From an uncultured Chloroflexia bacterium (lineage in GTDB: Bacteria; Chloroflexota; Limnocylindria; Limnocylindrales; CSP1-4), in assembly GCA_963752475.1 (NCBI GenBank), contig CAVVYR010000008.1:64001-128000 (forward strand): a stretch of 64,000 nt of DNA, written 5' to 3'. Shown in pieces: positions 7,617-59,971 of this stretch (the stretch's first letter is position 1; each line of letters begins with the position of its first letter). The translations under genes and the position numbers were made by a program. The notes under the pieces were generated by a model. The model was given only the letters and a program-made list of their open reading frames with translations. It ran no database searches and was not told the DNA's origin.

Positions 7617-7973
7617 ATGTCGCCCGCGATCATGCGCTACTTCGACACCGTCGGCGGTCTCTTCCGCCAGGGTGGCTTCTCGGTCGATCTCATGCACCAC
7701 GCCATGCATGCGCTGGGCAGTCGCGTGCTCGGCTTCAAGCAGGAGCTCTTCGACGACTCGAGCGGGGACGCGCCGGATATGGATGAGGCCTTCGTCAGGC
7801 ACGTTCAGGAGGGTTTTCCCAACATCGCGGCGACCGTGGAGGAGATCCAGCACCAGGAGGAGACGATCGTCGGCTCAGGCTGCGACGACGACGTCGAGTT
7901 CCGCTTCGCGCTCGACATCCTCCTCGACGGCCTGGAGCGCCGCCGCGACGCCGAACTGGAGGGCGCCGGCTAG
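7617..7973 (+). pseudogene. TetR-family regulator C-terminal domain only (HTH missing)
   Basis: GGFSVDLMHHAMHALGSRVLGF..GCDDDVEFRFALDILLDGLE is a TetR_C-like tail; upstream sequence has no HTH. Confidence 0.7.
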
Positions 7974-8377
7974 TTCGACCGCCAGACGTCGAGACCGACG
8001 TGTGGAGCCATGTGTTCGAAGTCGCGATCGGTCGTCAGCATCACGAGGTCATGGCGTAGACACATCTCTGCGAGCAAGGCGTCGACGGTTCCTGCCTGTA
8101 CCCCACGTCGTCGGCAGGTGGCCTGCAACTCTGCTGCCGCGATGTGGTCGCTGCGGTCGGGCATCAGCAGCGGGAGGGCGGCGAACCGGTCAAGGAGTCC
8201 GGCCCGCTGGCCACCGTCGCGCAGGCCCTGAAGGATCTCCTGCAGCACCAGCCCGGTGGTGAAGACGGCCTCACCGGTCTCAAGGGCGCGACTCAGTCGC
8301 TCGACGGTCGGGTCGGTCGATGACGATCGGCGTCGGAAGGCCAGCGACCACACGCTCGTGTCGACGAAGAAGTTCAC
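7970..8377 (-). CDS. vapC: PIN-domain toxin VapC
   Basis: FVDTSVW, VLQEILQG, VDALLA, LTTDRDF conserved acidic PIN motifs. Confidence 0.92.
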   Translation of the reverse strand: MNFFVDTSVWSLAFRRRSSSTDPTVERLSRALETGEAVFTTGLVLQEILQGLRDGGQRAGLLDRFAALPLLMPDRSDHIAAAELQATCRRRGVQAGTVDALLAEMCLRHDLVMLTTDRDFEHMAPHVGLDVWRSN

Positions 8378-8574
8378 GAGCGAGAGCGTTGCGCCTTGTA
8401 GTCGTACTGCTGATCCCAGTCGAGAGCGCCGAACAGTTCCGTCAGCCGACGCTGCTCGTGTCGAGCGACGTACTCCTCGAGGGCGCGACGGACTGCGGCT
8501 GTCTTGGTCCGTTCACCGCTGATCTCGACGGCCTTCTCAAGCAGCTCTTGCTCGATATCGAGGTTGGTCGCCAT
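8374..8574 (-). CDS. vapB: VapB-type antitoxin (RHH / DUF2191-like)
   Basis: MATNLDIEQELLEKA..TKTAAVRRALEEY; 66 aa; overlaps the vapC start. Confidence 0.88.
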   Translation of the reverse strand: MATNLDIEQELLEKAVEISGERTKTAAVRRALEEYVARHEQRRLTELFGALDWDQQYDYKAQRSRS

Positions 8575-8592
8575 GTGCGAATACTCGCACAT
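8573..8592. promoter_or_regulatory. Inverted repeat, probable VapBC autoregulatory operator
   Basis: ATGTGCGA-atac-TCGCACAT, perfect 8-bp arms abutting the antitoxin start codon. Confidence 0.65.
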
Positions 8593-8711
8593 ATCACCGC
8601 ACAAGTCCAGAACTCTGGCTGCCGTGGCCGTGGAGCCGGTCGCGTCCGAGCTAGCGCGCCACAAGCCCTATCCTGAGTCGGTCACACCGATCGACGACAG
8701 GGAGGGCCACC

Positions 8712-10340
8712 GTGCGAACCGCCGAAGCACTGCTGGGTGCGCTGCGTGAAGCCGGCGCACGAGAGATCTTCGGCATCCCCGGCGACTTCGCGCTGCCCCT
8801 CTTCGAGGTCATCGAGCGCACCCGCACGCTGCCGCTGTATACGCTGAGCCATGAGCCGGCGGTGGGCTTCGCGGCCGACGCGGCAGCCCGCTTCCACGGT
8901 GGGATCGGGGTCGCCGCCATCACCTATGGCGCCGGCGCCTTCAACCTGGTCAACCCGGTCGCCGGCGCCTATGCCGAACGCTCACCGGTCGTCGTGCTCT
9001 CCGGCGCTCCCTCCCTGGCCGAGCGGTCCCGTGGGCTCCTGGTCCACCACCAAGCCCGCACCATCGAGTCGCAGCTCAACGTCTATCGCGAGATCACCTG
9101 CGACCAGGCCGTGCTCGACGACCCCTCGACCGCGGCCGAATCGATCGCCCGTGTCCTGCGCGCCGCGCGCGAGCACTCGCAGCCGGTCTACATCGAGATC
9201 CCGCGCGACATGGTCGCGGCGGAGATCGGCGAGGTGCCGGTGCTGCCGCCTTCCCCTGTCGATCCCGATGCGGTCCGTGCCGCGGCCACCGAGGTCCTCG
9301 ACCGGCTCGCCGCCGCCAACTCCCCGGTCTTGCTCGTCGACGCCGAGATCCGCCGCTTCGGAGTGGAGGCGGAGGTCGCCGAGCTGGCCGAGCTGCTGGG
9401 CATCCCTGTGGTCACGACCTTCATGGGCCGCGGCCTCCTGGCCGACGCACCGAACCCACCCATCGGCACCTACATCGGTGTCGCCGGCCAGCCCGAGATC
9501 ACGCAGCTCGTCGAGGGATCCGATGCCCTCTTCATGCTCGGCGTCATCCTCAGCGACACGAACTTCAGCACGGCCTCGCGCCAGATCGACCTGCGGCACG
9601 CGATCATCGCGGCCGAGCGCCAGGTCCGCCTCGGCTTCCACATCTACCACGACGTGCCGCTGCGCCATCTCGTGGAGGCCATGACCGTGGCGGCCACGCC
9701 CGCCGGCGGACGCCCCTCGCTTCCCTCCCCGCCCGAGCCCCCGACCGGACTCATCGCCGACGAGTCGTCCATCGGTCCGACCGACATCGCGACCGCGGTC
9801 AACGACCTCATGCGTGACCATCGTGCGATGCCCATCTCGTCGGACATGGGCGACTGCCTCTTCACGGCCATGGACATCGAGCACACGGCGCTGGTGGCGC
9901 CGGGCTACTACGCGGGCATGGGCTTCGGCGTTCCCGGCGGTCTCGGCATCCAGGCCGCGACCGGCGAACGGCCGTTGATCCTCGTCGGCGATGGCGCATT
10001 CCAGATGACCGGCTGGGAGCTGGGCAACTGCCAACGCTACGGCTGGGATCCCATCGTCATCGTCTTCAACAACGCCTCGTGGGAGATGCTGCGGGCATTC
10101 GGGCCGCAGGCCGGCTACAACGACCTGCCCGACTGGCCCTTCCACGAGCTGGCCGACTCGCTCGGCGGCGTGGGCATACGTGTCCGGACCCGCCGTGAAC
10201 TGGCCGAGGCGCTCGAACGGGCGGTGGCCGACGAAGGCCGCTTCGTGCTCATCGACGTGGTCATGGAGCGCGGACGCATCTCGAGCACGCTCAGCCGCTA
10301 CGTCGAGGGCTTCGAGCGGCAGCGAGCACGAGGCGCCTGA
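8712..10340 (+). CDS. ipdC: Indolepyruvate/phenylpyruvate decarboxylase (ThDP-dependent), copy 1
   Basis: IFGIPGDFALP, HEPAVGFAAD, LVHHQ, GDGAFQMTGWELGNC..FNNASW ThDP motif. Confidence 0.9.
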   Translation: MRTAEALLGALREAGAREIFGIPGDFALPLFEVIERTRTLPLYTLSHEPAVGFAADAAARFHGGIGVAAITYGAGAFNLVNPVAGAYAERSPVVVLSGAPSLAERSRGLLVHHQARTIESQLNVYREITCDQAVLDDPSTAAESIARVLRAAREHSQPVYIEIPRDMVAAEIGEVPVLPPSPVDPDAVRAAATEVLDRLAAANSPVLLVDAEIRRFGVEAEVAELAELLGIPVVTTFMGRGLLADAPNPPIGTYIGVAGQPEITQLVEGSDALFMLGVILSDTNFSTASRQIDLRHAIIAAERQVRLGFHIYHDVPLRHLVEAMTVAATPAGGRPSLPSPPEPPTGLIADESSIGPTDIATAVNDLMRDHRAMPISSDMGDCLFTAMDIEHTALVAPGYYAGMGFGVPGGLGIQAATGERPLILVGDGAFQMTGWELGNCQRYGWDPIVIVFNNASWEMLRAFGPQAGYNDLPDWPFHELADSLGGVGIRVRTRRELAEALERAVADEGRFVLIDVVMERGRISSTLSRYVEGFERQRARGA

Positions 10341-10349
10341 GCCGGTCCG
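10293..10349 (+). repeat. 57-bp direct repeat, copy 1 (3' end of ipdC1)
   Basis: agccgctacgtcgagggcttcgagcggcagcgagcacgaggcgcctgagccggtccg, identical to 20216-20272. Confidence 0.95.
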
Positions 10350-10355
10350 GCCTCG

Positions 10356-10892
10356 CTAACCGAGCGGCTCTGGGTAGACGCGGTTCGGCGTGTTGCGCCT
10401 GGTCGGCGCGGCCACGAGCTCGACCAGGCAACCGACATCGTCACCGTGCTCGTAGTAGGCGAAACGCCCGTCTCGTGAGAGGCCGAACCCATCGCCGGTC
10501 TGGACAGCGACCCAACCCTGGTCCTCGATCTCGGCGGCGGCGGCGGCGAAGTCGTCGACGTAGAAGTTGAAGTGATGGAGTGAGGCTCCTTGAGCGTCAA
10601 GGTACTCGTGCCAGATGCTCGGACCCTCGAGCGGCTGGATGATCTCCATGGTCAGATCACCCGACAGTGCCAGGCCATAGCGGATCTTGAAGTGCGCCGG
10701 CTGCCCGCGATAGGTCACACCCGTCAAGCCCTCACCGACCGTGTAGATCTTCCAGGGCCCGATGCCGAGTAGCTCCCAGTAGGCCCGGACCGAGGCATCC
10801 ACGTCCGGGACGACCAGGGCGATCTGGCCGACCGGCACACCGAATCGCGATCCACCGGCGAGTGGAGCTGGCACGTTTCCGACTCGTGGCAT
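10356..10892 (-). CDS. VOC family protein (methylmalonyl-CoA epimerase-like, Glyoxalase_4)
   Basis: QIALVVPDVD..GIGPW, MEIIQPLEGPSIWHEYL..LHHF, LVELV. Confidence 0.85.
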   Translation of the reverse strand: MPRVGNVPAPLAGGSRFGVPVGQIALVVPDVDASVRAYWELLGIGPWKIYTVGEGLTGVTYRGQPAHFKIRYGLALSGDLTMEIIQPLEGPSIWHEYLDAQGASLHHFNFYVDDFAAAAAEIEDQGWVAVQTGDGFGLSRDGRFAYYEHGDDVGCLVELVAAPTRRNTPNRVYPEPLG

Positions 10893-10936
10893 GGGGCCCT
10901 CCTCGGCTCCTCACTCGAACGCAGCGGCCCGCGCCC

Positions 10937-10991
10937 TTGACATGGAAGTGCGCCGCGGCCCACAATCCACACTGATTGTAACGCTGTTACA
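10937..10991 (+). promoter_or_regulatory. Sigma70-type promoter with downstream palindromic operator
   Basis: TTGACA (10937-10942), 18 bp, CACAAT (10961-10966); TGTAAC-gct-GTTACA at 10977-10991. Confidence 0.6.
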
Positions 10992-11025
10992 GACAGCTGC
11001 AGAGGTTCAGCACGGGGTGGCCGCG

Positions 11026-11781
11026 ATGTTCCAGGACTTGTTCTCCCTCGAGGGGAAGGTAGCACTGATCACCGGCGGCTCGGGGGCGATCGGACAGGGC
11101 GCAGCACAGGTCTTCCTCGAGCTCGGCGCCAAGGTCATCCTCGCCGGTCGGACCGAGGAGCACCTACGGGCTGCACGCGAAGCCCTGCCAGGCGACGCTG
11201 AGGTCGACACCGTCCTGGGCGATGCCTGTGACCCGACACACGTCGCCGAACTCGTCGAGGCTACCCGGGCGCATGGCGGTGTCGACATCCTCGTGAACAG
11301 CGTCGGCACCAACCGACGCAAGCCGATCCTGGAGGCAACGACCGAGGATCTCGAGTTCCTGTGGCAGGTCAACATGGCCAGCGTCTGGGCGGTGACGCAG
11401 GCGCTGGTGCCGCAGATGGTGGAGAAGGGCTACGGCAAGATCATCAACATGTGCTCGATCGGTTCATTCGTGGGGCTCGAGTTCAAGACCATGTACGCCA
11501 TCACCAAGGGCGCGCTGGCCCAACACACTCGCAGTGCCGCGGTCGAGCTGGCTCCGTACGGCATCAGGGTCAACGGGCTGGCTCCGGGCTACGTGGATAC
11601 GCCGATGACCCACGCCTGGATCCACTCCGAGCGTGAGGCCGAGTACCTGTCGAAGATCCCGCTCGGCAAGTACGCCGAAGTGTCCGACCTGCAGGGCGCG
11701 TTCGCGTTGCTGGCCTCGCCTGCCTCCGACCACATCACCGGCCAGATCGTCGTCATCGACGGCGGTGAGACGATCTGGTAG
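11026..11781 (+). CDS. SDR oxidoreductase (KduD / gluconate 5-dehydrogenase-like)
   Basis: TGGSGAIG, YAITKG (YxxxK), VNGLAPGYVDT, TGQIVVIDGG. Confidence 0.9.
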   Translation: MFQDLFSLEGKVALITGGSGAIGQGAAQVFLELGAKVILAGRTEEHLRAAREALPGDAEVDTVLGDACDPTHVAELVEATRAHGGVDILVNSVGTNRRKPILEATTEDLEFLWQVNMASVWAVTQALVPQMVEKGYGKIINMCSIGSFVGLEFKTMYAITKGALAQHTRSAAVELAPYGIRVNGLAPGYVDTPMTHAWIHSEREAEYLSKIPLGKYAEVSDLQGAFALLASPASDHITGQIVVIDGGETIW

Positions 11782-11809
11782 CCAGGCGCGGCAAGACCGG
11801 AGGAACAAG

Positions 11810-12469
11810 ATGCCTCTCAGGCGAGAAGCCACACTCGGGACGATGCTGGAGAGCGGCGTCGTGGCCGTCGTTCGGGTAGACGAGCCCAGTGGGCTCATCC
11901 CACTTGCCGGTGCGCTGCTGGAGGGCGGGGTCGCCCACACCGAGATCACGATGACCGTGCCGGGCGCGCTTCACGCCATCGAAGCGACGGTCCGCGAGTT
12001 CGGGGATGACGTCTTCGTGGGCGCCGGCACCGCGCTCGATGCCGTGACGGCTCGGTTGGCTATCAGCGCTGGTGCTTCCTTCATCGTAGCCCCCAGCTTC
12101 GATGCCGATGTGGTAGCCATGAGCCACCGCTATGGAGCGGTCGCGATCCCCGGCTGCCTGAGCCCGACTGAGATCATCACCGCCTGGTCGGCCGGCGCCG
12201 ACGTGATCAAGCTCTTCCCTGGACGCGTGGCCACGCCCGGCTACTTCAAGGACATCCTGGGTCCGTATCCCCAGGTGCGGCTGATGCCTACGGGCAACGT
12301 CAACCTCGAAACCACACCTGAGTACATCAAGGCCGGCGCGGTCGGCGTGGGTGTAGGCAAGGCGCTCGTCGATCCGGTCGCGTTCCGAGAGGGCCGCTGG
12401 GCGGACATCACCGACAACGCCCGCCGCTTGCGCACACTGGTCCAAGAAGCGAGGGAGTCGTTGGCGTGA
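11810..12469 (+). CDS. eda: KDPG/KHG aldolase
   Basis: VAVVR, EITMT, VGAGT, IPGCLSPTEI, IKLFPG, MPTGNV; GGAGGA RBS. Confidence 0.9.
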   Translation: MPLRREATLGTMLESGVVAVVRVDEPSGLIPLAGALLEGGVAHTEITMTVPGALHAIEATVREFGDDVFVGAGTALDAVTARLAISAGASFIVAPSFDADVVAMSHRYGAVAIPGCLSPTEIITAWSAGADVIKLFPGRVATPGYFKDILGPYPQVRLMPTGNVNLETTPEYIKAGAVGVGVGKALVDPVAFREGRWADITDNARRLRTLVQEARESLA

Positions 12470-13503
12470 GTGGGAGCCGCTTCAGGATGGTGGCCTTCGG
12501 AGAGCTGCTCATGCGGCTGGAGCCTCCGGGCCACCAGCGCATCGTCCAGGCGGGCTCCTTCGATGTCGGCTACACCGGCGGAGAAGCCAACGCGGCGGCG
12601 TTGCTGGCCGGGCTGGGCGTCGAGACAGCAGCCGTCTCCCGCGTGCCCGCCAACGAGGTCGGACAAGCCTGCATCAACCACTTGCGTCGCTATGGCATCG
12701 ACACGACCCATATCGCGCGCGGCGGCGAGCGGCTGGGTCTCTTCTATCTGGAGACCGGGGCGTCCCAACGCGCCTCGAAGGTCATCTACGATCGTGAGCA
12801 CACATCGCTGCGCAGTGCGTCGGCTGCTGACTTCGACTGGCCAGCCATCCTCGATGGCGCCGACTGGTTGCACTTCTCGGGCACCGCACCGGCGTCGGGG
12901 CCGGTAGTCATCGGTGTCCTCGAAGAGGGGCTCAGGTTGGCCCAGGAGCAGGGAGTCAAGGTCAGTTGCGATCTCAACTACCGTCGCAAACTGTGGACGC
13001 CCGAAGAGGCGCGAGCGGCGATGACTCGCCTGATGCCCTTCGTCGACATACTGATCGGCAACGAGGAGGACGCCATCACCGTCTTCGGTATCACTGCCGA
13101 GCACATCGATGTCGTCCAGGGGGAACTCGATACCGGGTCGTACCGACGTATCGCAGGTGAGCTCATGGAGCGCTATCAGCTGCAGGCAGTGGCGACCACG
13201 CTGCGCACGAGCATCTCGGCGTCCGTCAATCGCTGGGCCGGGCTGCTCTTCGACGGGACCGAGCAGTACCTCAGCCGCACCTACGACATCGATCCCATCG
13301 TTGACCGCGTCGGCGGTGGCGATTCGTTCGCGGGTGGACTCATCTACAGCCTGCTCCATGAGGTGGGGCCACAGGCGTCGGTCGAATTCGCTGTCGCAGC
13401 CTCCTGCCTCAAGCATGCCGTCCCCGGAGACTTCGCCTCCCTGTCGCTGCAGGAGATCGAGGCACTTGCGGGCGGCGATGCCTCGGGCCGAGTCCAACGA
13501 TGA
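12466..13503 (+). CDS. kdgK: 2-keto-3-deoxygluconate kinase (PfkB family)
   Basis: FGELLMRL, GGEANAA, CDLNYRRKLW, DRVGGGDSFAGG. Confidence 0.9.
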   Translation: MSGSRFRMVAFGELLMRLEPPGHQRIVQAGSFDVGYTGGEANAAALLAGLGVETAAVSRVPANEVGQACINHLRRYGIDTTHIARGGERLGLFYLETGASQRASKVIYDREHTSLRSASAADFDWPAILDGADWLHFSGTAPASGPVVIGVLEEGLRLAQEQGVKVSCDLNYRRKLWTPEEARAAMTRLMPFVDILIGNEEDAITVFGITAEHIDVVQGELDTGSYRRIAGELMERYQLQAVATTLRTSISASVNRWAGLLFDGTEQYLSRTYDIDPIVDRVGGGDSFAGGLIYSLLHEVGPQASVEFAVAASCLKHAVPGDFASLSLQEIEALAGGDASGRVQR

Positions 13504-13569
13504 TCTCGGCACGACGTTCGACGCCGATACGACGACGAGACATCGATGTGCGAGAGCTCAGGAGTTGAC

Positions 13570-15276
13570 ATGGCGACGCTACTCGGTCACACGCTTGGAA
13601 CACCCGGGCTGACGCCGCTCGAAGCCCTCGACCTGTTCGCGAAGTCTGGGCTCGACGGTGCCGAGATCATCTGGCTGGACGACTACCGCGGTGCCATCCC
13701 GGAAAGCGACGATGGCCGTGTGGTCGCGGAGGTCAGGGCGCACGCCGACGAGCTGGGCCTGTGCATCGGCGGTCTGACCCCCTATGTGACCGAGCTCAGC
13801 AGCCTTGACGACGATCTCCATGCGCGTGAGATCGCACGGCTGGAGCGGGCGATCGAGGTGGCTCGTGCGCTCGACTGCACACGCATCCGGGTCTACGCCG
13901 GCAAGCTCCTCGGCAACGAGCCCGAGGCTGACATCCCACGCTTGCGGGAGCGCCTGGTCGCTGCCCTCCGCCACCTCGGGCCCTTGGCCAATGACCAGGG
14001 CGTGGTGCTCTGCATCGAGAACCACTTCGGAACCATGACCGTCTCGGCGGCCGATACCGTCTCGATCATCGAGGAGGTCGACACCGTTGGCATCGGCATC
14101 CTCTACGACCAAGCCAATCTGACCTTCACCCGCCGTGAAGACTACGAAGAGGCCGTGGCCTTGCAGGCGCACTGGATCAGCCATGTGCACGTCAAGGATC
14201 TGGAGTGGATCCACCCTGACCGCGAACTCAGGACCGCCAATGTCGCCAGCATCGACAAGTCCGAGCGTGTCCACGCATCACGGATGATCGGCGACGGCGT
14301 CCTGAACTGGAAGGCGATCGTCGCGGCTATCCGCGCGACCGGCTACGACGGCAGCTACTCCCTCGAGTACGAGTACCGCTGGAACCCCGAGGACTTGCCG
14401 GTGCCTGAGGTCGGCTTCCCCGAGAGCGCGCGTCGACTGCGCGACTGCTTCGAATTCGTGAACGGCTCGGGCAGGATCGGTACGAATACCATCGGTCGCA
14501 CGATGCGTATGCTCGAACTCCTCGCGGGTGAGCCACGAGGACTGCGCATCACGGATCTGGCCAACGAGATGGGCCTCAACCGAGCCATCCCCCATCGCGT
14601 ACTGGCCGATCTCATCGGGCTCGGCTATGTCGCCCAGGACCCCCGCACCGAGCGCTACCGCGTGACCTACAAGCTGGGCAGCTTGGGTTTGCGCCAACTG
14701 GAGACCGCCGGCACCATGCGCTGGGCGCAGGACGAGCTCAACAAGCTGGCGGCAAGCACCCGAGAACTCGTGCGCCTGGCTGTCGCGGAGGGGGCCACCC
14801 TGACCTGGGTAGCCAAGGCCCAGGGCTCTGACTCGGCTCTGACCTACGACGGTGTCTCCGGCACGGAGGTCGTGCTGCACGCGACGGCCAGTGGAAAGGC
14901 CTTCCTCGCCACCCTGCCCGTGGCCGAGGCGGAGCGCACCATCGCCGAGCACGGGCTCGATCCCCAGACGAACCGCACCGAGACCGACCTCGAGGGGGTG
15001 CTGCAGGAGCTCGGCCTCACGCGCGAGCGCGGGTATGCCCTCGTAGAGGAGGAGATGGAGGTCGGCGTCTCGGCCATCGCGGCCCCCATCGTGCCGCCGC
15101 AGTCCGTGGATGGCCGGGCCGTCGCTACGGTAAGCATCGCGGGGCCTTCAGCTCGCCTCGACCACGAGCGCATGACGCGATACGCCGACGACCTCGTGGA
15201 GGTCGCCAACGAGCTGGCCGCCCAGTGGCATACCTACGAGTACATGACCGTGCTGGCCGCAGCAGGCGTGGACTGA
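13570..15276 (+). CDS. Sugar-phosphate isomerase/epimerase TIM barrel fused to an IclR-family regulator
   Basis: N-half CIENH, LYDQAN, HVHVKD, SLEYE (AP_endonuc_2); C-half HTH plus LHATASGKAFLA..RERGYA..SAIAAP..SIAGP (IclR). Confidence 0.85.
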   Translation: MATLLGHTLGTPGLTPLEALDLFAKSGLDGAEIIWLDDYRGAIPESDDGRVVAEVRAHADELGLCIGGLTPYVTELSSLDDDLHAREIARLERAIEVARALDCTRIRVYAGKLLGNEPEADIPRLRERLVAALRHLGPLANDQGVVLCIENHFGTMTVSAADTVSIIEEVDTVGIGILYDQANLTFTRREDYEEAVALQAHWISHVHVKDLEWIHPDRELRTANVASIDKSERVHASRMIGDGVLNWKAIVAAIRATGYDGSYSLEYEYRWNPEDLPVPEVGFPESARRLRDCFEFVNGSGRIGTNTIGRTMRMLELLAGEPRGLRITDLANEMGLNRAIPHRVLADLIGLGYVAQDPRTERYRVTYKLGSLGLRQLETAGTMRWAQDELNKLAASTRELVRLAVAEGATLTWVAKAQGSDSALTYDGVSGTEVVLHATASGKAFLATLPVAEAERTIAEHGLDPQTNRTETDLEGVLQELGLTRERGYALVEEEMEVGVSAIAAPIVPPQSVDGRAVATVSIAGPSARLDHERMTRYADDLVEVANELAAQWHTYEYMTVLAAAGVD

Positions 15277-15282
15277 GGGGTC

Positions 15283-16845
15283 ATGATCACTTCGAAGGTG
15301 GTCAGCGCGGCCGGGGCCGTGTCGCTGATCGAGGACGGACAGACGGTCGCCGCAGGCGGCAGCGGTCACCTACTGCAAGTCCCTGACGGCACCCTTGCCG
15401 CGCTGGGCGCCCGCTTCGAAGAGACTGGCGAACCGAGCGGCCTGACGGTCGTGCACACGATGGGCATCGGAGATAACGGCGAGCGGGGCCTGGGCCGCCT
15501 GGCGCGAAAGGGTCTGGTGCGCCGCTTCATCGGTTCACACTACGGGCACAACCCCGAGATCATGCGCATGATCGCCGACGACGAAGTCGAGGCCCTGGGC
15601 ATCCCGGGCGGGACCCTCTCGCTGCTCTATCGCGAGATCGCCGGGCACCGACCGGGTTTGCTGACCAAGGTCGGCATGGGCACGTTCGTCGATCCTCGCG
15701 TGGATGGCGGGCGTCTGAACGAGCGCACCACCGGCAACGTGGCCGAGGTCGTGGAGTTCGCGGGCGAAGAGTGGCTGTTCTACAAGGCCTTCCCCATCGA
15801 CGTGGGCATCATCCGCGCGACCACTGCCGACAACGACGGCAACGTGACCATGGAGGACGAGGCCGGCTTCGCCGACAACCTCGCATTGGCCTCGGCCGTG
15901 CACGTTTCGGGTGGCACGGTCATCGCCGAGGTCAAGCGCCTGGCGCAGGCCGGGACGCTGCCGGCCAAAGAGGTCGTGGTCCCGGGCATCCTCGTCGACG
16001 CCATCGTGGTCGACCCCGACCAGCACCAGACCGGCGCCACCGTCTATAGCCCCTATCTCGCGGGCACGCTGCGGGCCCCGGGCGCATCGATCCCGCGCTT
16101 GCCGACGGGGCCTCGCAAGGTCATCGCCCGACGCGCAGCCGACGAGCTGCACCCGGGAGACATCGTCAACCTGGGCTTCGGCGTCTCCAACGGCGTGGCC
16201 TCGGTGCTGGCCGAGGAAGGGCACTACGAGGACGTCGACTTCAGCATCGAGCAGGGCATCGTCGGCGGCATCCCCGGCGTCGGGCTCGACTCGGGCACGG
16301 CCATCAACGCCGGGGCCTACATCGACGAAGGCGCCCAGTTCGACCTCTACGATGGCGGCGCGCTGGACGTGGCCTGCGTGGCCTTCGGTGAAGTGGACGC
16401 CGTGGGCAACGTCAACGTGAGCAAGCTGGGCGGTCGCGCGGTGGGCCCCGGCGGCTTCATCAACATCACCCAGAACGCCCGCCGCGTCGTCTTCTGCGGC
16501 ACGCTGACCGGCGGCGGGCTGGACATCGGCGTCAGCGAGGCCGGCCTGGAGCTGCGGACCGAGGGCCGCTACCGCAAGTTCGTGGGGCGCACGGCGCACA
16601 TCACCTTCTCGGCCGCGCACGGCGACCCGCGACGCGAGGTCCTCTATGTCACCGAACGCGCCGTCTTCCGGCTGGCGAACGGCGGCCTGGAGCTGATCGA
16701 GGTCGCGCCGGGCATCGACCTCGAGCGGGACGTGCTGGGACAGATGGACTTCGCGCCGGCAGTGGCCGACCAGCTACGGACCATGGATGCACGCCTCTTC
16801 CGCGATGGGTTCATGGGCAACGTCAGACACCTGGTGGAGGACTAG
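15283..16845 (+). CDS. Acyl-CoA:acetate/3-ketoacid CoA transferase (YdiF/Pct family)
   Basis: TKVGMGTFVDPR, VNLGFG, SIEQG (catalytic Glu), GPGGFINITQNA, YVTERAVF. Confidence 0.9.
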   Translation: MITSKVVSAAGAVSLIEDGQTVAAGGSGHLLQVPDGTLAALGARFEETGEPSGLTVVHTMGIGDNGERGLGRLARKGLVRRFIGSHYGHNPEIMRMIADDEVEALGIPGGTLSLLYREIAGHRPGLLTKVGMGTFVDPRVDGGRLNERTTGNVAEVVEFAGEEWLFYKAFPIDVGIIRATTADNDGNVTMEDEAGFADNLALASAVHVSGGTVIAEVKRLAQAGTLPAKEVVVPGILVDAIVVDPDQHQTGATVYSPYLAGTLRAPGASIPRLPTGPRKVIARRAADELHPGDIVNLGFGVSNGVASVLAEEGHYEDVDFSIEQGIVGGIPGVGLDSGTAINAGAYIDEGAQFDLYDGGALDVACVAFGEVDAVGNVNVSKLGGRAVGPGGFINITQNARRVVFCGTLTGGGLDIGVSEAGLELRTEGRYRKFVGRTAHITFSAAHGDPRREVLYVTERAVFRLANGGLELIEVAPGIDLERDVLGQMDFAPAVADQLRTMDARLFRDGFMGNVRHLVED

Positions 16846-16847
16846 AC

Positions 16848-17339
16848 ATGGAAGGTGGCCTCCTGCGCTACGAGGACCTGCACGTCGGGCTCGAGTTCGA
16901 CAGCCCCACCCGCACCATCACCGAGAGCGACGTCATGACCTTCGCGGGCTTGACCGGCGACTACTCGGAGCTCCACACGAGTGCGGCCTTCGCCGAGCAG
17001 ACGCAGTACGGGCGGCGAGTGGCCCATGGCCTGCTGGGCCTGTCAGTGGCGCACGGGCTGATGTGGCCCCGGACCAACGCCATGCGCGACATCGCCATCG
17101 CCCTGCTGGGCATCTCCGACTGGCGCTTCCGGGGCCCCGTCTTCCTGGGCGACACCGTCCGCGTGCGCTACCGCGTGGCCGAGATGCGCGACAGCCGCTC
17201 CAACCCCGAGCAGGCCATCGTGACCTTCGAGGTGGAGGTCTTCAATCAGTCCGGCGAGCTGGTGCAGGGCGGCCGCAAGGTACTGCTCGTTTCCAAGACA
17301 CCGCTGCCCGCCACCAAAGACGATCAGGACCTAACGTAA
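16848..17339 (+). CDS. MaoC-family (R)-specific dehydratase
   Basis: RTITESDVMTFAGLTGDYSELH..RVAHGLL..WRFRGPVFLGDT. Confidence 0.88.
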   Translation: MEGGLLRYEDLHVGLEFDSPTRTITESDVMTFAGLTGDYSELHTSAAFAEQTQYGRRVAHGLLGLSVAHGLMWPRTNAMRDIAIALLGISDWRFRGPVFLGDTVRVRYRVAEMRDSRSNPEQAIVTFEVEVFNQSGELVQGGRKVLLVSKTPLPATKDDQDLT

Positions 17340-17349
17340 CAGTGTTACA
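17335..17349. promoter_or_regulatory. Second copy of the GTAAC-N3-GTTAC palindrome, upstream of the ABC genes
   Basis: cGTAAC-agt-GTTACa, matching 10977-10991. Confidence 0.55.
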
Positions 17350-17388
17350 CTGCGCCAACCAGACGCGACCTGGGGAGACTACAGCCTG

Positions 17389-18234
17389 ATGTCCGACGCC
17401 TCGCGCAACAGCGCCAGCACGTCTGTCGGGCGGTCCACCGAGGAGTGGGATCGCGAACGGCGGAAGCGCAAGGTCCGTCGTGTCTGGTACTCGCTACTAC
17501 CCGTCCTGACCTTCAGCCTGATCCTGCTGGGCTGGTGGGCCTTCGTCGTCATCGCCGATGTGCCCGAGTACATCGTGCCCTCGCCGCTGGACGTGTTCCC
17601 GCGGCTCATCGAGGACCTCGACCGCTTGGTCGAGGAGTCCATGGTCACGATGCAGGAGATCTTCCTGGGCTACTTCCTGGCTGTGGTGCTGGCCATCCCG
17701 CTGGGCCTGTTGCTGGCGATGAACGAGATGGCCAAGCGCGCGCTCTATCCGGCCGTCGTCTTCATCCAGCTCATCCCCAAGATCGCGGTGGCGCCGCTGT
17801 TCCTCGTCTGGTTCGGCTTCGGCATGCAGTCCAAGGTCCTGCTGGTCTTCCTGCTGACCTACTTCCCGCTGCTGCTCGCGAGCATGGCCGGCTTCTCCAT
17901 CCTCGACGACCGGCTGCTCCACCTCACCCGTTCCATGGGTGCCTCGCAGCTGCAGACGTTCCGCTACCTGCGTTTGCCCAGTGCCCTGCCCATCATCTTC
18001 AGCGGCCTCAAGACCTCGGCCACCATCGCCGCCACGGCCGCCATCGTGGCCGAGTTCGTGGGTGCCAACAAGGGTCTGGGCTACCTGCTCCTGGAAGCCA
18101 CATCCACGCTCGATACCGAACTCATCTTCGCCATCATCCTCGTGCTCACGCTCATCGGCATCGGTCTCAACTACCTTGTCGAGTTCGTCGAGTACTTCAC
18201 CACGCCCTGGACGCGTAAGGCCAAGGAACAATGA
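17389..18234 (+). CDS. ABC transporter permease (NitT/TauT/SsuC family)
   Basis: YIVPSP, IPKIAVAPLFLVWFGFG, LRLPSALP, AEFVGANKGLGY. Confidence 0.92.
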   Translation: MSDASRNSASTSVGRSTEEWDRERRKRKVRRVWYSLLPVLTFSLILLGWWAFVVIADVPEYIVPSPLDVFPRLIEDLDRLVEESMVTMQEIFLGYFLAVVLAIPLGLLLAMNEMAKRALYPAVVFIQLIPKIAVAPLFLVWFGFGMQSKVLLVFLLTYFPLLLASMAGFSILDDRLLHLTRSMGASQLQTFRYLRLPSALPIIFSGLKTSATIAATAAIVAEFVGANKGLGYLLLEATSTLDTELIFAIILVLTLIGIGLNYLVEFVEYFTTPWTRKAKEQ

Positions 18235-18322
18235 CCAACCGAATCGAGTAGGAAGTGTCGGAGCACCCGGAGTCCTCGTCCAGGGGGGTCTCGACGGTGC
18301 TCCGCAAGACAAGGAGGAGTCC

Positions 18323-19342
18323 ATGCGGACCAAGAGGACACTGGCTCTGGGAATGAGCTTCGTGATGGCATTGGGAGCGGCGACGTCCATCGCCGGCACC
18401 GTTGCCGCCCAGGACGAGCCGCTCGAGCAAGTCACCTTCCAGCTCAACTGGGTCCCGGGTGGCTTCCACGCCGGGTTCGCCCTGGCACGTGAGGCCGGCT
18501 ACTACGAAGACGAAGGCCTCTTCGTCCACCTCGTGCCCGGCAACGGCTCGGCCACCACGGCTCAGCTGACCGCCGCCGGCAACGTCAACCTCGGCAATGC
18601 CGATGCGGCGCCGGTGACGCAGCTGGTAGCCAAGGGCGCGCCGGTCAAGGTCATCGCCACGCTCTTCCAGGGCTCGCCCATCCAGATCACGGCCAAGGCC
18701 GATTCCGGCATCACCGAGATCAGCGACCTCGAAGGCCGGTCGCTGGCCTATCCATCGGGTGGATCGCAGGCCGCGCAGCTGCCGCTGGTCTTCGCCGCCA
18801 ACGGTGTCGATGCCGACGCGGTCGAGCTGGTGCCGACCCCGCGCGAGGCACTCGTGCCCGTGTTGCTCGAGGACCAGGTCGACGCCATCGTCGGCTCCAT
18901 GGACTTCTTCGGCATCCAGCTGGCCGACCGCGGCATCGAGACCGTCGACTTCCCGATGTACGAGAATGGCGCACCGACGGTGAGCACCTCCATCATCGGC
19001 AACGAGGACTGGATGGCTGAGAACCCCGAGACGACGCAGAAGTTCGTCAAGGCCAGCCTGCGTGGCTGGGCCGAGGCGCTGGAGAACCCCGACGCAGCCA
19101 TCGAAGCGCTGGCCGCGCTGTTCCGCAACGTGGATGCCGAGGAGGCCCAGAAGCAGCTCGAGGCCACGATCCCGCTGTACTGTGCCAATGGTGCCCAGTA
19201 CCTGGGCAAGGCCACCGAGGAAGCGTGGGTCAACCACGAGATGGTGATGCGCGAGTCCGGCAGCATCGAGGAGGCAGTCGAGCCGACCGACCTCTACACC
19301 TACGACTACCTGCCTCCCGACGAAGAGCTGTCGCCCTGCTAG
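18323..19342 (+). CDS. ABC substrate-binding protein (NMT1/THI5-like)
   Basis: Signal peptide; FQLNWVPGGFHAGF..AGYYEDEGL..GNGS; AGGAGG RBS. Confidence 0.88.
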   Translation: MRTKRTLALGMSFVMALGAATSIAGTVAAQDEPLEQVTFQLNWVPGGFHAGFALAREAGYYEDEGLFVHLVPGNGSATTAQLTAAGNVNLGNADAAPVTQLVAKGAPVKVIATLFQGSPIQITAKADSGITEISDLEGRSLAYPSGGSQAAQLPLVFAANGVDADAVELVPTPREALVPVLLEDQVDAIVGSMDFFGIQLADRGIETVDFPMYENGAPTVSTSIIGNEDWMAENPETTQKFVKASLRGWAEALENPDAAIEALAALFRNVDAEEAQKQLEATIPLYCANGAQYLGKATEEAWVNHEMVMRESGSIEEAVEPTDLYTYDYLPPDEELSPC

Positions 19343-19380
19343 CAGTCCCGGCAACCGAGGAGTAGGAGACAGGGTCAGGG

Positions 19381-20217
19381 ATGATGGATCGAGCCGAAAC
19401 GGAAGCCCGTGGTGTACGCCTCGAGGTCGATGGCGTGTCGCGCGTCTTCAATGAGTTCAGTGACGACCCGTTCCTGGCCCTGTCCGAGACCGATCTGACA
19501 TTCGAGCCAGGTGAGTTCGTGAGCGTGGTCGGCCCGAGTGGCTGTGGCAAGTCCACGCTCATGCTCATCGCCGCCGGACTGCTGCCACCGTCTACCGGAG
19601 AGATCCGAATCGATGGCGAGGTCCAGACCAAGCCGATGACCGATGTCGGCATCGCCTTCCAGGACCACCTCTTGCTCGATTTCCGGACGGCCAAGGAGAA
19701 CGTCCTCTTGCAGGCCGACATCCGGGGTCTGGACCGGGCCGAGCTGACCAGGAGGACCGACGAGCTCTTCGAGCAGCTCGGGTTGCACCAGGGTGCGGGT
19801 GACAAGTACCCGCGCCAGCTCTCAGGCGGGATGCGCCAGCGCGTCGCGCTTGCGAGGACGGTCGTCCACCGCCCATCGATGCTCATGCTCGATGAGCCGT
19901 TCGGGGCCCTCGATGCCCTGACCCGCTTGCAGGTCCGCCACGATCTCGAGCAGTTGTGGCTGCAGTACCGCCCAACGGTGCTTTTCGTGACCCACTCCGT
20001 CGAGGAGGCGGTCGGCCTCTCCGACCGGATCGTGGTCTTCTCCACGTCACCCGGCAGCATCGTCGACGAGATCACAGTCGACCTACCCCGACCACGGCCA
20101 CTGTCTCTGGGCGACACGCCCGAGTACGCCAAATATGCCGACCGCGTCTTCGAGCACTTCGAGTCGATGGGCGTGCTTTCCGAAGGCAGCGGCGGAGAGC
20201 CCCCGACCGTTCTCTAG
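19381..20217 (+). CDS. ABC transporter ATP-binding protein (NitT/TauT)
   Basis: GPSGCGKST, LSGGMRQR, LDEPFGALD, FVTHSVEEAV. Confidence 0.93.
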   Translation: MMDRAETEARGVRLEVDGVSRVFNEFSDDPFLALSETDLTFEPGEFVSVVGPSGCGKSTLMLIAAGLLPPSTGEIRIDGEVQTKPMTDVGIAFQDHLLLDFRTAKENVLLQADIRGLDRAELTRRTDELFEQLGLHQGAGDKYPRQLSGGMRQRVALARTVVHRPSMLMLDEPFGALDALTRLQVRHDLEQLWLQYRPTVLFVTHSVEEAVGLSDRIVVFSTSPGSIVDEITVDLPRPRPLSLGDTPEYAKYADRVFEHFESMGVLSEGSGGEPPTVL

Positions 20218-20272
20218 CCGCTACGTCGAGGGCTTCGAGCGGCAGCGAGCACGAGGCGCCTGAGCCGGTCCG
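20216..20272 (+). repeat. 57-bp direct repeat, copy 2 (orphan ipdC 3' end)
   Basis: Identical to 10293-10349; overlaps the ATPase stop codon. Confidence 0.95.
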
Positions 20273-20381
20273 ACGAATCCGGTCCGAGCACCCGCCGAAT
20301 GGTCCGTTCGGCGCTTGTCAAGGGTCGTAGACAGGAGCATCGTCATGAGCGGCAGGGCGTGCCCTGCGAAGGAGGTGGACG

Positions 20382-20900
20382 ATGGAAGCGACGGTTTCCA
20401 GAGGCCCCATGAAGAGCCTGACGACCTGGCTGGACTCAGCAGGCGTCGACTACGAACTCCACGAGCACGACCGATCGCTCACGGCCCTGGCCACCGCACG
20501 AGCCGAAGGCGTCGACCCGAGCACCTTCGAGAAGGTCGTGTGGGTGCGCTCGGTCGATGGCGGCGATGCGCTCATCGTGCTCGATGCCAACGATCACCTT
20601 GACCTCGGGAAGGCCAAGGACGTGCTTCGATCAGGCAAGGTCCAACTCGTGCCGGAGGAAGAGCTGATCGAGCTCGCACCCGACTGCGATCCCGGTGCCA
20701 TGCCGGCGGTGGGCAGCTTGTTCGGGCTCCCGACCTACGCGGATCTGCACGTGAGTGACGCCGCGGAGGTCAGCTTCAACGCCGGTAGCCACACGGTCGC
20801 GGTTCGGGTGGATCGCGCAGCTTGGGAGAAGGCACTGGGCGTCGTGTACGCCGACCTGGCAGCGGCCACCTGGCACGAGCCCGCCTGGCACCGATCCTGA
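20382..20900 (+). CDS. YbaK/EbsC family aminoacyl-tRNA deacylase
   Basis: YELHEH..TA..KVV..PDCDPGAMPAVG..FNAGSH; AAGGAGG RBS. Confidence 0.85.
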   Translation: MEATVSRGPMKSLTTWLDSAGVDYELHEHDRSLTALATARAEGVDPSTFEKVVWVRSVDGGDALIVLDANDHLDLGKAKDVLRSGKVQLVPEEELIELAPDCDPGAMPAVGSLFGLPTYADLHVSDAAEVSFNAGSHTVAVRVDRAAWEKALGVVYADLAAATWHEPAWHRS

Positions 20901-20975
20901 CGCTCGCCGCTCGGTGATGACGGGTCCCACAGGCCGTGGGACTCCTCCGTAGCGCCGCTCGAGAGGAGGCGTGAG

Positions 20976-21863
20976 ATGCGAGTCCTTGTCGCTATCGATG
21001 GTTCGGAGTGCGCCGGTGTGGCCATCGACCTCGTCGGTGGGCTCCACTGGCCCGCAGGTACGGAGGTGAGAGTGCTGGAGGTGGTGCCCGCCGGCGCTGC
21101 CGTCTTCGGGGGTCCGTGGCCGCCGATCCCGCCGCTCGACACCACCCTGATCGATCGTGACATCCGCGAGCAGGCCTCGCGCGACCTGCAAGACGCGGCC
21201 GAGAAGCTAGCCGGCCCGGGACGCTCGGTCGAGACGACCGTAGCCGCTGGACGAGCGGGCGACACCATCACCTCGCTCGCGGAGCAGTCCGAGGTGGACC
21301 TCATCGTCGTCGGCTCCCGTGGTCACGGGACCCTCGGGACGATGCTGCTCGGCTCCGTCTCGTCGGAGGTCATCGATCACGCGCACGTGCCCGTGCTCGT
21401 CGCTCGCGGGCGAGAGATCAGGCGGGTCGTCTTCGCCTGGGATGGCTCGGATCGCGCCGAGGCGGCGGTGGCACCGCTGAGCGCGTGGGGGCTGTTCGGC
21501 GATGCCCACGTGGACGTGCTCAGCATCGCCGACGCCGAACCCCCGTGGTGGGCTCGTGCCGACATGGTCTCCGAGGAGGTCGCGGCCGAGGCCTACCACG
21601 AGGCCGCGGCGCCATCGCGGCAGCAGCACGAAGAGATGGCAGAGCGGATGGCCGAGCGGCTCCGGACCGCCGGTCTCGATGCCGTGTCCGTGAGCCGTGA
21701 GGGCGATCCGGCCGAGGCGATCGTGGCCTTCGCCAAGTCCCACGAGGTCGACCTGGTCGTGCTTGGCACGCACGGACGGACGGGGCTGCGACGGCTGCTC
21801 CTGGGCAGCGTAGCCCGGAACGTGTCCCTGCACGCCCATTGCTCGGTGTTGGTGGCGCGCTAG
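20976..21863 (+). CDS. Universal stress protein (tandem USP domains)
   Basis: VLVAIDGS, VGSRGHG..LLGSVS, VLGTHGRTG..LLGSVA. Confidence 0.92.
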   Translation: MRVLVAIDGSECAGVAIDLVGGLHWPAGTEVRVLEVVPAGAAVFGGPWPPIPPLDTTLIDRDIREQASRDLQDAAEKLAGPGRSVETTVAAGRAGDTITSLAEQSEVDLIVVGSRGHGTLGTMLLGSVSSEVIDHAHVPVLVARGREIRRVVFAWDGSDRAEAAVAPLSAWGLFGDAHVDVLSIADAEPPWWARADMVSEEVAAEAYHEAAAPSRQQHEEMAERMAERLRTAGLDAVSVSREGDPAEAIVAFAKSHEVDLVVLGTHGRTGLRRLLLGSVARNVSLHAHCSVLVAR

Positions 21864-21932
21864 CGGGCTTCGGGTCAATCGTCCGAGAAGTACGCTGGAG
21901 GGGCTCGAACAGGTCGCTCAGGGGGTGCTGTC

Positions 21933-23561
21933 ATGCAGTTGGCCGAGGCGCTTCTGGAAGCGCTCCACCGTGCTGGAGCGAGGGAGATCTTCGGCATCCC
22001 GGGGGACTTCGCGCTGCCCTACTTCGAGGTCATCGAGCGCAGTGGCGTGATGCCGCTGTACACGCTGAGCCACGAACCGGCGGTGGGGTTCGCGGCTGAT
22101 GCCGGCACCCGCTTCCGCGGTGGCCTGGGCGTGGCCGCGATCACCTACGGCGCGGGTGCCTTCAACCTCGTCAACGCCGTAGCCGGCTCGTACGCTGAGC
22201 GGTCCCCGGTGGTCGTGCTCTCGGGAGCACCGTCGCGCCCTGAACGCACCTCTGGCCTGCTCGTCCACCATCAGGCCCGAACGCTCGACTCCCAGCTCAA
22301 CGTCTATCGCGAGATCACCTGCGACCAGGCCGTGCTCGACGATCCGCGCACAGCACCGGAGGCCATCGCCCGCGTCATCCGTTCCTGCCATGAACGGTCG
22401 CAGCCGGTGTACATCGAGATCCCGCGCGACATCGTCGGTGCCGAGGTGGAACCGGTACCCGACCTGCCGGCGAGCCCGGTCGACCCCGATGCCGTGGAGG
22501 CAGCAGCCGTGGAGGTGCTGGCCCGTCTGGAGGCCGCTCGCTCGCCGGTGATGATGGTCGACGCGGAGATCCGCCGCTACGGCGTCGAAGCCAAGGTGGC
22601 CGATCTGGCGCACAAGCTGCATATCCCGGTGGTGACCACGTTCATGGGCCGTGGCCTCCTGGTCGACTCGGCCAACCCGCCGCTGGGCACCTACATCGGC
22701 GTCGCCGGCGAGCCGGAGATCACCGAGCTGGTCGAGACCTCCGATGCGCTGCTCCTTCTGGGGGTCATCCTCTCGGACCTCAACTTCGCGGTCTCACTAC
22801 GCAAGATCGACCTGCGCAAGACCATCCTCGCCGCGCAGCGGGAGGTGCGGCTGTCGCACCACATCTATCCCCATATCCCGCTCGAAGCGCTCGTCGACGC
22901 CATGGCCCTGCGGGCACGGCGGCTGGGTGACCGGCCAGACGTCGCAGCGCCCCCGCAGCCACCCTATGGCCTGGCCCTCGACGACGGATCGGTCACGCCA
23001 CATGACATCGCCACCGCGGTCAACGACATGATGCACCGGCACGGACCGCTGCCCATGGCATCCGACATGGGTGACTGCCTGTTCACGGCCATGGACGTCG
23101 ACCACCACGCCATCGCTGCGCCCGGCTACTACGCGGGCATGGGCTTCGGCATCCCCGCGGGCCTGGGCATCCAGGCCGCCACGGGCGAGCGTGCGCTGGT
23201 GCTGGTCGGCGACGGCGCCTTCGAGATGACCGGCCTCGAGCTGGGCAATTGCCGGCGCTATGGCTGGGATCCGATCGTCATCGTCTTCAACAACGCCTCG
23301 TGGGAGACCCTGCGTGCCTTCGTGCCCAAGGCCCGCTTCACCGATCGGGAGAAGTTGGCCTTCCACGAGATGGCCGAGCCACTCGGCGGCGTGGGCATCC
23401 GTGTCCGCACCAGGCGTGAGCTGGCGGCCGCACTCGAACAGGCGGTCGAGACCCGCGGCCGCTTCGTGCTCATCGACGTCGAGCTCGAACCGGGCGGCAT
23501 GTCGCGCACGCTCCGTCGCTACATCGAGGCCTTCGAGCGCAAGCGCGGCCAGGGAGGCTAG
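21933..23561 (+). CDS. ipdC: Indolepyruvate/phenylpyruvate decarboxylase, copy 2
   Basis: Same length (542 aa) and motifs as 8712-10340. Confidence 0.9.
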   Translation: MQLAEALLEALHRAGAREIFGIPGDFALPYFEVIERSGVMPLYTLSHEPAVGFAADAGTRFRGGLGVAAITYGAGAFNLVNAVAGSYAERSPVVVLSGAPSRPERTSGLLVHHQARTLDSQLNVYREITCDQAVLDDPRTAPEAIARVIRSCHERSQPVYIEIPRDIVGAEVEPVPDLPASPVDPDAVEAAAVEVLARLEAARSPVMMVDAEIRRYGVEAKVADLAHKLHIPVVTTFMGRGLLVDSANPPLGTYIGVAGEPEITELVETSDALLLLGVILSDLNFAVSLRKIDLRKTILAAQREVRLSHHIYPHIPLEALVDAMALRARRLGDRPDVAAPPQPPYGLALDDGSVTPHDIATAVNDMMHRHGPLPMASDMGDCLFTAMDVDHHAIAAPGYYAGMGFGIPAGLGIQAATGERALVLVGDGAFEMTGLELGNCRRYGWDPIVIVFNNASWETLRAFVPKARFTDREKLAFHEMAEPLGGVGIRVRTRRELAAALEQAVETRGRFVLIDVELEPGGMSRTLRRYIEAFERKRGQGG

Positions 23562-40940: not shown

Positions 40941-40941
40941 C

Positions 40942-43142: not shown

Positions 43143-43346
43143 GGGTCGATGATAGGGCGCCCATGGGAACGTCTTCACGTGCGCTCGCCGGCGGTACCAA
43201 GAGGCGGTTCGTGGCAGATAGGACTAGTACTGATGGGCCCCTCCCATCTGCCCTCCACTACACCGAACATGAGCCGAGCAAGCCCACCGTACGGGACCCG
43301 AACCGATTCGCATGCACCCTCACCGGCACGTGCACGAGCTCGCGCG

Positions 43347-59938: not shown

Positions 59939-59971
59939 TGGTTCCCCTCCTCCTCGTTGCCCTTGGCTCGT

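Follow-up and report, generated by a model that had tools for sequence, protein, structure and literature searches.

In a soil Chloroflexota genome, a 9.9-kb cluster of metabolic, regulatory and transport genes lies between two identical copies of a 57-bp sequence that includes the 3′ end of ipdC1, a gene for an indolepyruvate/phenylpyruvate decarboxylase. The DNA analysed, referred to below as the window, is a 64-kb stretch of high-GC sequence (about 66-70% GC) from contig CAVVYR010000008.1. We read the arrangement, tentatively and with somewhat less than even confidence, as the outcome of an insertion that took place by general recombination rather than through a dedicated integrase, and in which a stub of homology became duplicated. 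Three observations together favour a homology-driven join of this kind: the exact match of the repeat to a poorly conserved sequence of the host, the host-like composition of the cluster and the structural plasticity of the locus.

The 57-bp repeat and the two ipdC genes

The left copy of the repeat, R1, occupies positions 10293-10349 of the forward (+) strand and takes in the final 48 nt of ipdC1 with its stop codon, together with the 9 nt that follow. The right copy, R2 (20216-20272, +), matches it at 57/57 nt. It begins 2 nt inside the TAG stop codon (20215-20217) of an open reading frame (ORF) for an ABC transporter ATPase (19381-20217) and is an orphan stub of the ipdC1 3′ end, no ipdC body having been found upstream of it. 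A preliminary description of the window had reported both the exact duplication, with these limits, and the missing ipdC at the right-hand copy, and was correct on both counts. A 12-nt tandem array excepted, R1/R2 is the longest exact direct repeat of the window. With up to three mismatches allowed, R1 and R2 were the sole matches to the 57-mer in the window; a segment at 23514-23570, 63% identical to it, belongs to the paralogue ipdC2, of which it forms the 3′ end. In 100 dinucleotide-preserving shuffles the 57-mer found no match, which rules out a chance origin. A search of genome contigs with ipdC1 as query returned 80 loci, and the exact 57-mer is found at none of them. Thus a dispersed repeat, named as an alternative in the preliminary description, is ruled out within the window, where there are two copies and no third, and among the 80 related loci.

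Comparison with five orthologues showed 31-38 of the 48 nt of the ipdC1 repeat region to be identical, the corresponding figure for ipdC2 being 33 of 48. This region is the least conserved part of ipdC. Since R1 aligns with the 3′ ends of the five orthologues at this level, it can be regarded as the native copy. The perfect identity of R1 and R2 in so poorly conserved a stretch means that R2 can only have been copied from the ipdC1 of this same genome or of a very close relative, and hence within this species or genome. On its right-hand side R2 is followed by a 109-nt spacer (20273-20381, +) leading to the ybaK gene. The spacer contains an 8-pair hairpin at about 20293-20313 and takes part in a doubled 9-mer, CCGGTCCGA (20265-20287), of which the 64 kb hold only two copies, at 20265 and 20279. 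The first of these straddles the boundary between R2 and the spacer, and the second lies 14 nt further on. The doubled 9-mer may be a footprint of the joining event.

The product of ipdC1 (8712-10340, +; TGA stop at 10338-10340) is a protein of 542 aa with the Pfam TPP_enzyme N, M and C domains. It scores 843.9 bits against TIGR03394, the NCBIfam equivalog for indolepyruvate/phenylpyruvate decarboxylase (cut-off 554.5 bits), and ipdC2 (21933-23561, +), an old, divergent paralogue adjoining a PASTA-domain gene, scores 835.2 bits. As both TPP-enzyme genes exceed the cut-off, the name ipdC, which the preliminary description had given them, is a fair one. The two genes are 72% identical in amino acids and 73% in nucleotides, and four-fold degenerate sites are saturated for every pair compared (51% identity between ipdC1 and ipdC2, 57% between ipdC1 and its counterpart in L070, a Chloroflexota relative). 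Maximum-likelihood analysis groups ipdC1 with the L070 gene as its sister (99/99) and next with that of a second relative, L001 (96/95); ipdC2 is basal in the Chloroflexota clade, on a long branch, and its split from the other six genes is not strongly supported (88/87). These relationships, together with an upstream flank colinear with L001, make ipdC1 the orthologue of the one ipdC found in related genomes. The age of the paralogues, set against the flawless identity of the two 57-nt copies, shows the repeat to stem from a distinct and far more recent event.

The two genes stand in exact register, 13,221 nt apart. The ancestral upstream flank is held by ipdC1 and the ancestral downstream flank by ipdC2, which sits in the slot next to the PASTA-domain gene and overlaps it by 4 nt. 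Gene conversion between the paralogues was considered for a 50-nt exact block (9072-9121 and 22293-22342) and ruled out, the block being near-invariant in all orthologues. A mosaic ipdC arising from a crossover within the gene was likewise rejected, there being no reciprocal identity pattern along the two genes. An accretion model in which the ipdC2 end (R3) represents the original chromosomal end was also discarded, as R1 is the nearer of the two to the orthologues (best 38 vs 33 of 48).

The gene cluster and its locus in related genomes

Five of the 80 loci belong to Chloroflexota metagenome-assembled genomes (MAGs) and show 78-86% protein identity to ipdC1; the remaining 75 are Pseudomonadota-labelled or unclassified, at 55-65%. 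The window's own species is not among the 80, and the Chloroflexota relatives are only about 80% identical in DNA. Four of them (L001, L002, L066 and L070) have a usable downstream flank, the contig of the fifth (L003) ending too early. A cluster gene next to ipdC occurs at none of the 80 loci, and in each of the four relatives whose flanks are usable there is a single ipdC, with no cluster, no ybaK, no ipdC2 and no counterpart of the universal stress protein (Usp) gene that follows ybaK in the window. In L001 and L070 the single ipdC is followed by the PASTA-domain gene and MgtE, with none of these genes in between. L001 also has the same TetR and PIN genes upstream as the window, where a PIN-domain (VapC-like) ORF and a small upstream ORF lie directly 5′ of ipdC1 (7970-8664, −), colinear with L001. 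At the DNA level, colinearity with L001 covers positions 7979-10344, reaching 4 nt past the ipdC stop, and is back at 23576; the downstream flank of ipdC2 is colinear with both L070 and L001. The break at 10345-23575 means that the whole 13.2 kb is extra relative to these genomes. It comprises the cluster, R2, ybaK (20382-20900, +; YbaK/aminoacyl-tRNA deacylase, Pfam tRNA_edit), the tandem-domain Usp gene (20976-21863, +; two Pfam Usp stretches) and ipdC2. To judge from these alignments, the islet delimited by the repeats is nested in a larger, lineage-specific interval of 13.2 kb between the old ipdC paralogues. The preliminary description had predicted that relatives would show an empty site in which ipdC1 is followed directly by ybaK. 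Such a site was seen in none of the four, L001 and L070 being also without ybaK, and the prediction is not borne out.

In L002, ipdC is followed by genes for a LacI regulator and an arabinose isomerase, and in L066 by an alpha/beta hydrolase gene, beyond which a tandem duplication of 5.09 kb takes in MgtE. Three different genes are thus found downstream of ipdC in the four relatives, and with the L066 duplication and the two ipdC paralogues of the window itself they show the neighbourhood to be structurally plastic. The L066 duplication lies at about 12037-21136 of its locus, with copies 87-98% identical. An island, an ipdC-end repeat or a recombinase at the ipdC 3′ end was found in none of the four, only selected ORFs having been scanned in L002 and L066. 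The L070 orthologue is split by a frameshift at about 10804-10809, which marks it either as a pseudogene or as the site of a long-read indel error. In DNA otherwise colinear with L001, two further stretches of the window are absent from that genome (30533-33937 and 34796-36423). Their genes are a PPDK-like one, accompanied by an acyltransferase gene, and one for an EamA transporter, and no exact repeats of at least 14 nt were seen flanking the stretches.

The interval between the repeats (10350-20215; 9,866 bp) is nearly all coding and tightly packed, and all ten of its ORFs are metabolic, regulatory or transport genes. A VOC/glyoxalase-family gene comes first (10356-10892, −; Pfam Glyoxalase_4, 7.7e-16), convergent with ipdC1 and with its stop 6 nt from R1. 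Alignment with a paralogue at 59972-60517, which reaches residue 174 of 178, shows its C-terminus to be complete, and truncation of the end gene at the left junction is thereby ruled out. There follow, all on the + strand, a gene for a short-chain dehydrogenase/reductase (SDR) resembling KduD or gluconate 5-dehydrogenase (10891-11781; Pfam adh_short_C2, with NCBIfam matches below equivalog cut-offs), a KDPG/KHG aldolase gene, eda (ORF limits 11633-12469; Pfam Aldolase, 8.2e-40; TIGR01182, 166.5 bits vs a cut-off of 156), and a gene for a PfkB-family sugar kinase similar to 2-keto-3-deoxygluconate kinase (12466-13503; Pfam PfkB), whose match to NF041633 covers the kinase half (1e-145) and stays under the cut-off set for the whole protein. 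The SDR domain begins at about residue 46, and the true start of this gene is probably later than 10891; that of eda is probably near 11780-11820. The next ORF (13546-15276; 576 aa, no stop in between) combines in one frame a sugar-phosphate isomerase/epimerase TIM barrel and an IclR/KdgR-type regulator, with Pfam domains AP_endonuc_2 at residues 29-299, HTH_IclR at 316-366 and IclR_C at 392-557. Its 28 strongest homologues (P0241-P0268) are unfused, mostly of about 317 aa, and no identical 576-aa protein is listed in the protein collection. The best relative stands at 75%, and the count of relatives is unreliable, as the length filter (at least 316 aa) sits at the length of the homologues. 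The single ORF may represent a real fusion, a lost stop or an assembly indel. Further along are genes for a fused-subunit, FadX-like CoA-transferase (15283-16845; Pfam CoA_trans; NF052271, 1.1e-112, below cut-off) and a MaoC-like (R)-hydratase/dehydratase (16848-17339; Pfam MaoC_dehydratas, 1.4e-22). Three transport genes complete the set. They specify an ABC permease (17389-18234; Pfam BPD_transp_1), placed in the NitT/TauT family by the source names of homologues of its partner ATPase, an NMT1/SsuA-type substrate-binding protein (ORF limits 17939-19342; Pfam NMT1, 1.5e-49) and the ATPase that runs into R2 (Pfam ABC_tran). The domain of the binding protein starts at residue 162, and the true start of its gene is placed beyond the permease stop, no earlier than about 18235. 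In the ATPase, the conserved core extends to an MGVL motif that ends 12 residues before the stop, and the tails of 11 homologues vary in length.

The cluster is a self-contained accessory catabolic module consisting of enzymes, an IclR regulator and a NitT/TauT importer, for which the label "sugar-acid" is reasonable. Its composition is host-like and not that of an outlier: GC content is 66.3%, compared with 65.6-69.6% in 28 same-sized chunks of the window, and tetranucleotide usage correlates at 0.987 with that of the remaining window (chunk range 0.958-0.992). The protein collection contains only two clusters at 80% identity or more to the ATPase (P0002, 91%; P0003, 87%), and its nearest named relatives, at 78-79%, are from Acidimicrobiia and Actinobacteria MAGs (Actinomycetota). 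For ybaK there are 59 clusters at 80-94% identity, the closest (P0122-P0126) at 90-94%, and the named ones are Candidatus Limnocylindrales and Chloroflexota. With only about a quarter of the proteins in the collection named, the taxonomic hint is a weak one; the contrast of two against 59 clusters nonetheless suggests that the cluster is accessory and ybaK lineage-typical.

A second pairing of a VOC/glyoxalase gene with a xylose-isomerase-like TIM-barrel gene lies elsewhere in the window (59018-60517, −). The same pairing is found on a Herbiconiux plasmid (L081, 8402-9852), and protein P0269 fuses both domains, which suggests that the glyoxalase and TIM-barrel enzymes may work together. Two more features of the window were recorded in passing. 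An ORF of 1014 aa (42903-45947, +), which also has a double zinc-ribbon domain, contains at about 43950-45130 at least 73 register-shifted copies of a 12-nt unit (a 4-residue repeat). At 39686-41084 (−), the N- and C-terminal domains of a mannitol dehydrogenase are carried by two overlapping ORFs, suggesting a frameshift.

Origin of the duplicated stub

None of the 58 ORFs across the 64 kb belongs to an integrase, resolvase or transposase Pfam family, in agreement with the preliminary description, which had called the interval recombinase-free. The cluster contains no decayed mobility genes or remnants, its intergenic gaps being too small to hold any, and the window is free of tRNA and tmRNA genes as well as of Rfam matches. 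Dyad symmetry in the 57-mer does not go beyond chance (best 8/11, a value equalled by 34% of 2000 random window 57-mers). The imperfect inverted binding sites around a short spacer that make up a core-type recombinase site are missing from it, and it has no special fold (z +1.23). The cluster has no terminal inverted repeats (best 12/25, reached by 67% of random pairs). Each repeat adjoins coding sequence, the stop codon of the end gene lying 6 nt from the left-hand copy and 0-2 nt from the right-hand one, and this leaves no space for arm-type sites. Megablast of the islet gave nothing in phages and a single irrelevant 59-nt match in plasmids, and a protein search gave only a sugar-catabolic cluster on the Herbiconiux plasmid, loosely similar at 47% identity. 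On these grounds a plasmid or phage origin was set aside. A transposon was set aside as well, there being no transposase among the 58 ORFs, no terminal inverted repeats, and a repeat of 57 bp. Altogether, nothing speaks positively for a mobile element.

Under the favoured explanation, two alternative arrangements 3′ of ipdC1, one with the cluster and one with ybaK, would have been joined within the species. A circle carrying the cluster and the ipdC1 end may have entered by a single, Campbell-type crossover, or a linear piece may have been incorporated through one homologous and one illegitimate join. In the second case the 2-nt AG common to the ATPase stop and the R2 start may be the illegitimate join. 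By either route a short stub of shared homology would be duplicated; the order of events and the route of recombination are here our own reconstruction. In Escherichia coli, single crossovers of circular DNA with short homology left duplications of the homology, 109-950 bp long, on either side of the insert, according to PMC3240628. The repeat seen here conforms to such an origin in being the recipient's own sequence, exact, and free of any recombinase signature. Several considerations weigh against this explanation. At 57 bp the repeat is a short substrate for homologous recombination, and the donor arrangement, whether a cluster natively beside ipdC1 or a circle, was not observed in the 80 loci. 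Furthermore, a repeat that covers the 3′ end of a gene and ends a few bases past the stop has the classic layout of an attachment site. Finally, the cluster may have a foreign history, as indicated by the two ATPase clusters and the actinomycetotal affinity of its nearest named relatives, and host-like composition does not exclude this. Whatever its origin, the cluster should now be deletable, restoring the ipdC1-ybaK junction, or amplifiable, by RecA-type recombination between the repeats. Excision, as proposed in the preliminary description, is possible in principle for any two identical 57-bp direct repeats.

The attachment-site layout is what one would expect of a cis-mobilizable element (CIME)-like islet that entered, or still enters, site-specifically at the ipdC1 3′ end, with R1 and R2 as attL and attR and the recombinase provided in trans from elsewhere. 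Perfect direct repeats that restore the targeted gene's end and flank accessory cargo missing in relatives speak for such an islet, as do the rarity of the ATPase relative to ybaK (two vs 59 clusters at 80% identity or more) and a precedent in the same phylum, the Dehalococcoides ssrA islands (PMC3146451). We nevertheless consider it unlikely, for neither the islet, nor the ybaK-Usp-ipdC2 segment, nor the rest of the 64 kb (58 ORFs) encodes an integrase. The 9.87 kb are fully coding with no decayed mobility genes, the repeat is devoid of dyad symmetry and special fold and, unlike usual integration targets, poorly conserved among orthologues, none of the four relatives has an island or a recombinase at this position (among selected ORFs in L002 and L066), and the composition is that of the host. 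The preliminary description had inferred an integrative element at a protein-coding attachment site. What stands of this is the real repeat, the lack of a recombinase, the absence of the cluster from four of four relatives and the rarity of the ATPase; what does not is the site itself, for want of dyad, fold, arms, mobility remnants and islands in relatives, and in view of the host-like composition. Moreover, so poorly conserved a repeat is more readily explained as a copy produced in situ than as a conserved target of integration. Bolder still, and decidedly improbable in our view, is the proposition that the 57-mer is a working attachment site through which a recombinase encoded elsewhere in the Limnocylindria-like genome shuttles a recombinase-free, operon-sized metabolic cassette into and out of ipdC1. 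Were it true, whole catabolic pathways of an uncultured soil lineage would circulate in a cassette economy resembling that of integrons or CIMEs, the repeat being the sole non-coding DNA of the cassette.

It is also conceivable, if rather unlikely, that the cluster has long resided between ipdC1 and ybaK and that only R2 is new, either as a templated patch, in which 55-57 nt were copied from 9.9 kb upstream by a template switch or as filler in break repair, or as the stub left by a duplication followed by a deletion. The parental junctions would then be natural ones: ipdC1 and the glyoxalase gene converge with 15 nt between their stops, and the spacer from the ATPase to ybaK measures 109 nt without R2. 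The genome offers a precedent for such tight junctions in the 4-nt overlap of ipdC2 and the PASTA-domain gene. A stem-loop can be drawn across the junction of R1 and the cluster, without reaching significance (z −1.19), tandem duplication has been active at the locus in L066, and the doubled CCGGTCCGA lies exactly at the R2 boundary. Against this, templated patches are to our knowledge seldom documented in bacteria, the duplication-deletion route needs two events sharing an end point, and the contrast in abundance between ATPase and ybaK suggests different histories on either side of R2. A further reading, to which we give little credence, is that the path itself is an assembly artefact or a mixture of populations, in which a chromosome with ipdC1, the repeat and ybaK and a separate cluster-repeat molecule or strain variant were threaded together through the 57-mer. 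A path in which one repeat is visited on both sides of an insert is the expected assembler output for a loop at a short shared node, and 57 nt is near common k-mer sizes. Assemblies of the relatives contain indel errors, the L070 ipdC frameshift being an example, and the in-frame gene fusion at 13546-15276 of the window was unexpected. On the other hand, the window proteins are recorded on a contig of 638,109 nt, suggesting a well-supported assembly, both junction sequences must occur in reads for the path to be built, and a cluster-bearing molecule would still share the 57-mer with ipdC1 and so need a biological explanation.

Comparison with known systems

The structure is of a known kind, and the present case is a new instance of it. 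CIMEs, as described in PMC5704250, are integrase-less islands that keep attL and attR, and genomic islands at ssrA without integration modules are reported for Dehalococcoides, within Chloroflexota (PMC3146451, PMC5704250). The islet resembles the elements so described in consisting of cargo DNA only, in its direct repeats that include a target gene 3′ end (57 bp, 48 nt of them from ipdC1), in having no integration or transfer genes of its own and in its phylum. CIMEs, however, use conserved targets (tRNA, tmRNA), usually stand in tandem with an integrase-bearing element and contain decay remnants. Here the target is the poorly conserved end of a protein gene, there is no integrase-bearing neighbour within 64 kb and there are no remnants. 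Derivation from an integrative and conjugative or integrative and mobilizable element, visible as remnants or as a conserved integration module, could not be traced in the islet. Related islands at the same site were found in none of the four relatives, at about 80% DNA identity, and the 57-mer itself at none of the 80 loci. Transposon target-site duplications are likewise direct repeats of target sequence around inserted DNA. They are usually between a few and about 14 bp long, compared with 57 bp here, where terminal inverted repeats and a transposase are also missing.

A parallel to the favoured, homology-driven explanation is Campbell-type integration as studied at E. coli lacZ, for which PMC3240628 describes a homology-insert-homology order, an exact duplication and no need of a site-specific recombinase. 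The difference is one of scale and of donor: those experiments involved a plasmid circle and duplications of 109-950 bp, as against a homology of 57 bp in the present case, for which there is no known circular donor. Homology-facilitated illegitimate recombination, outlined in the same source, combines a homologous anchor with an illegitimate microhomology join, a part that the 2-nt AG could play in the present case. In that account it typically deletes recipient DNA instead of duplicating it; a duplication as its outcome is our own extrapolation.

What the islet signifies depends on which of these systems it belongs to. As the scar of a homology-driven rearrangement, it would reflect ordinary accessory-gene flux and mark a recent, deletable or amplifiable structural variant in a poorly known soil Chloroflexota lineage. 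If, instead, the 57-mer is a true attachment site served in trans, complete catabolic operons would move as recombinase-free cassettes in this phylum, and the proposal made for the Dehalococcoides ssrA islands would be extended accordingly.

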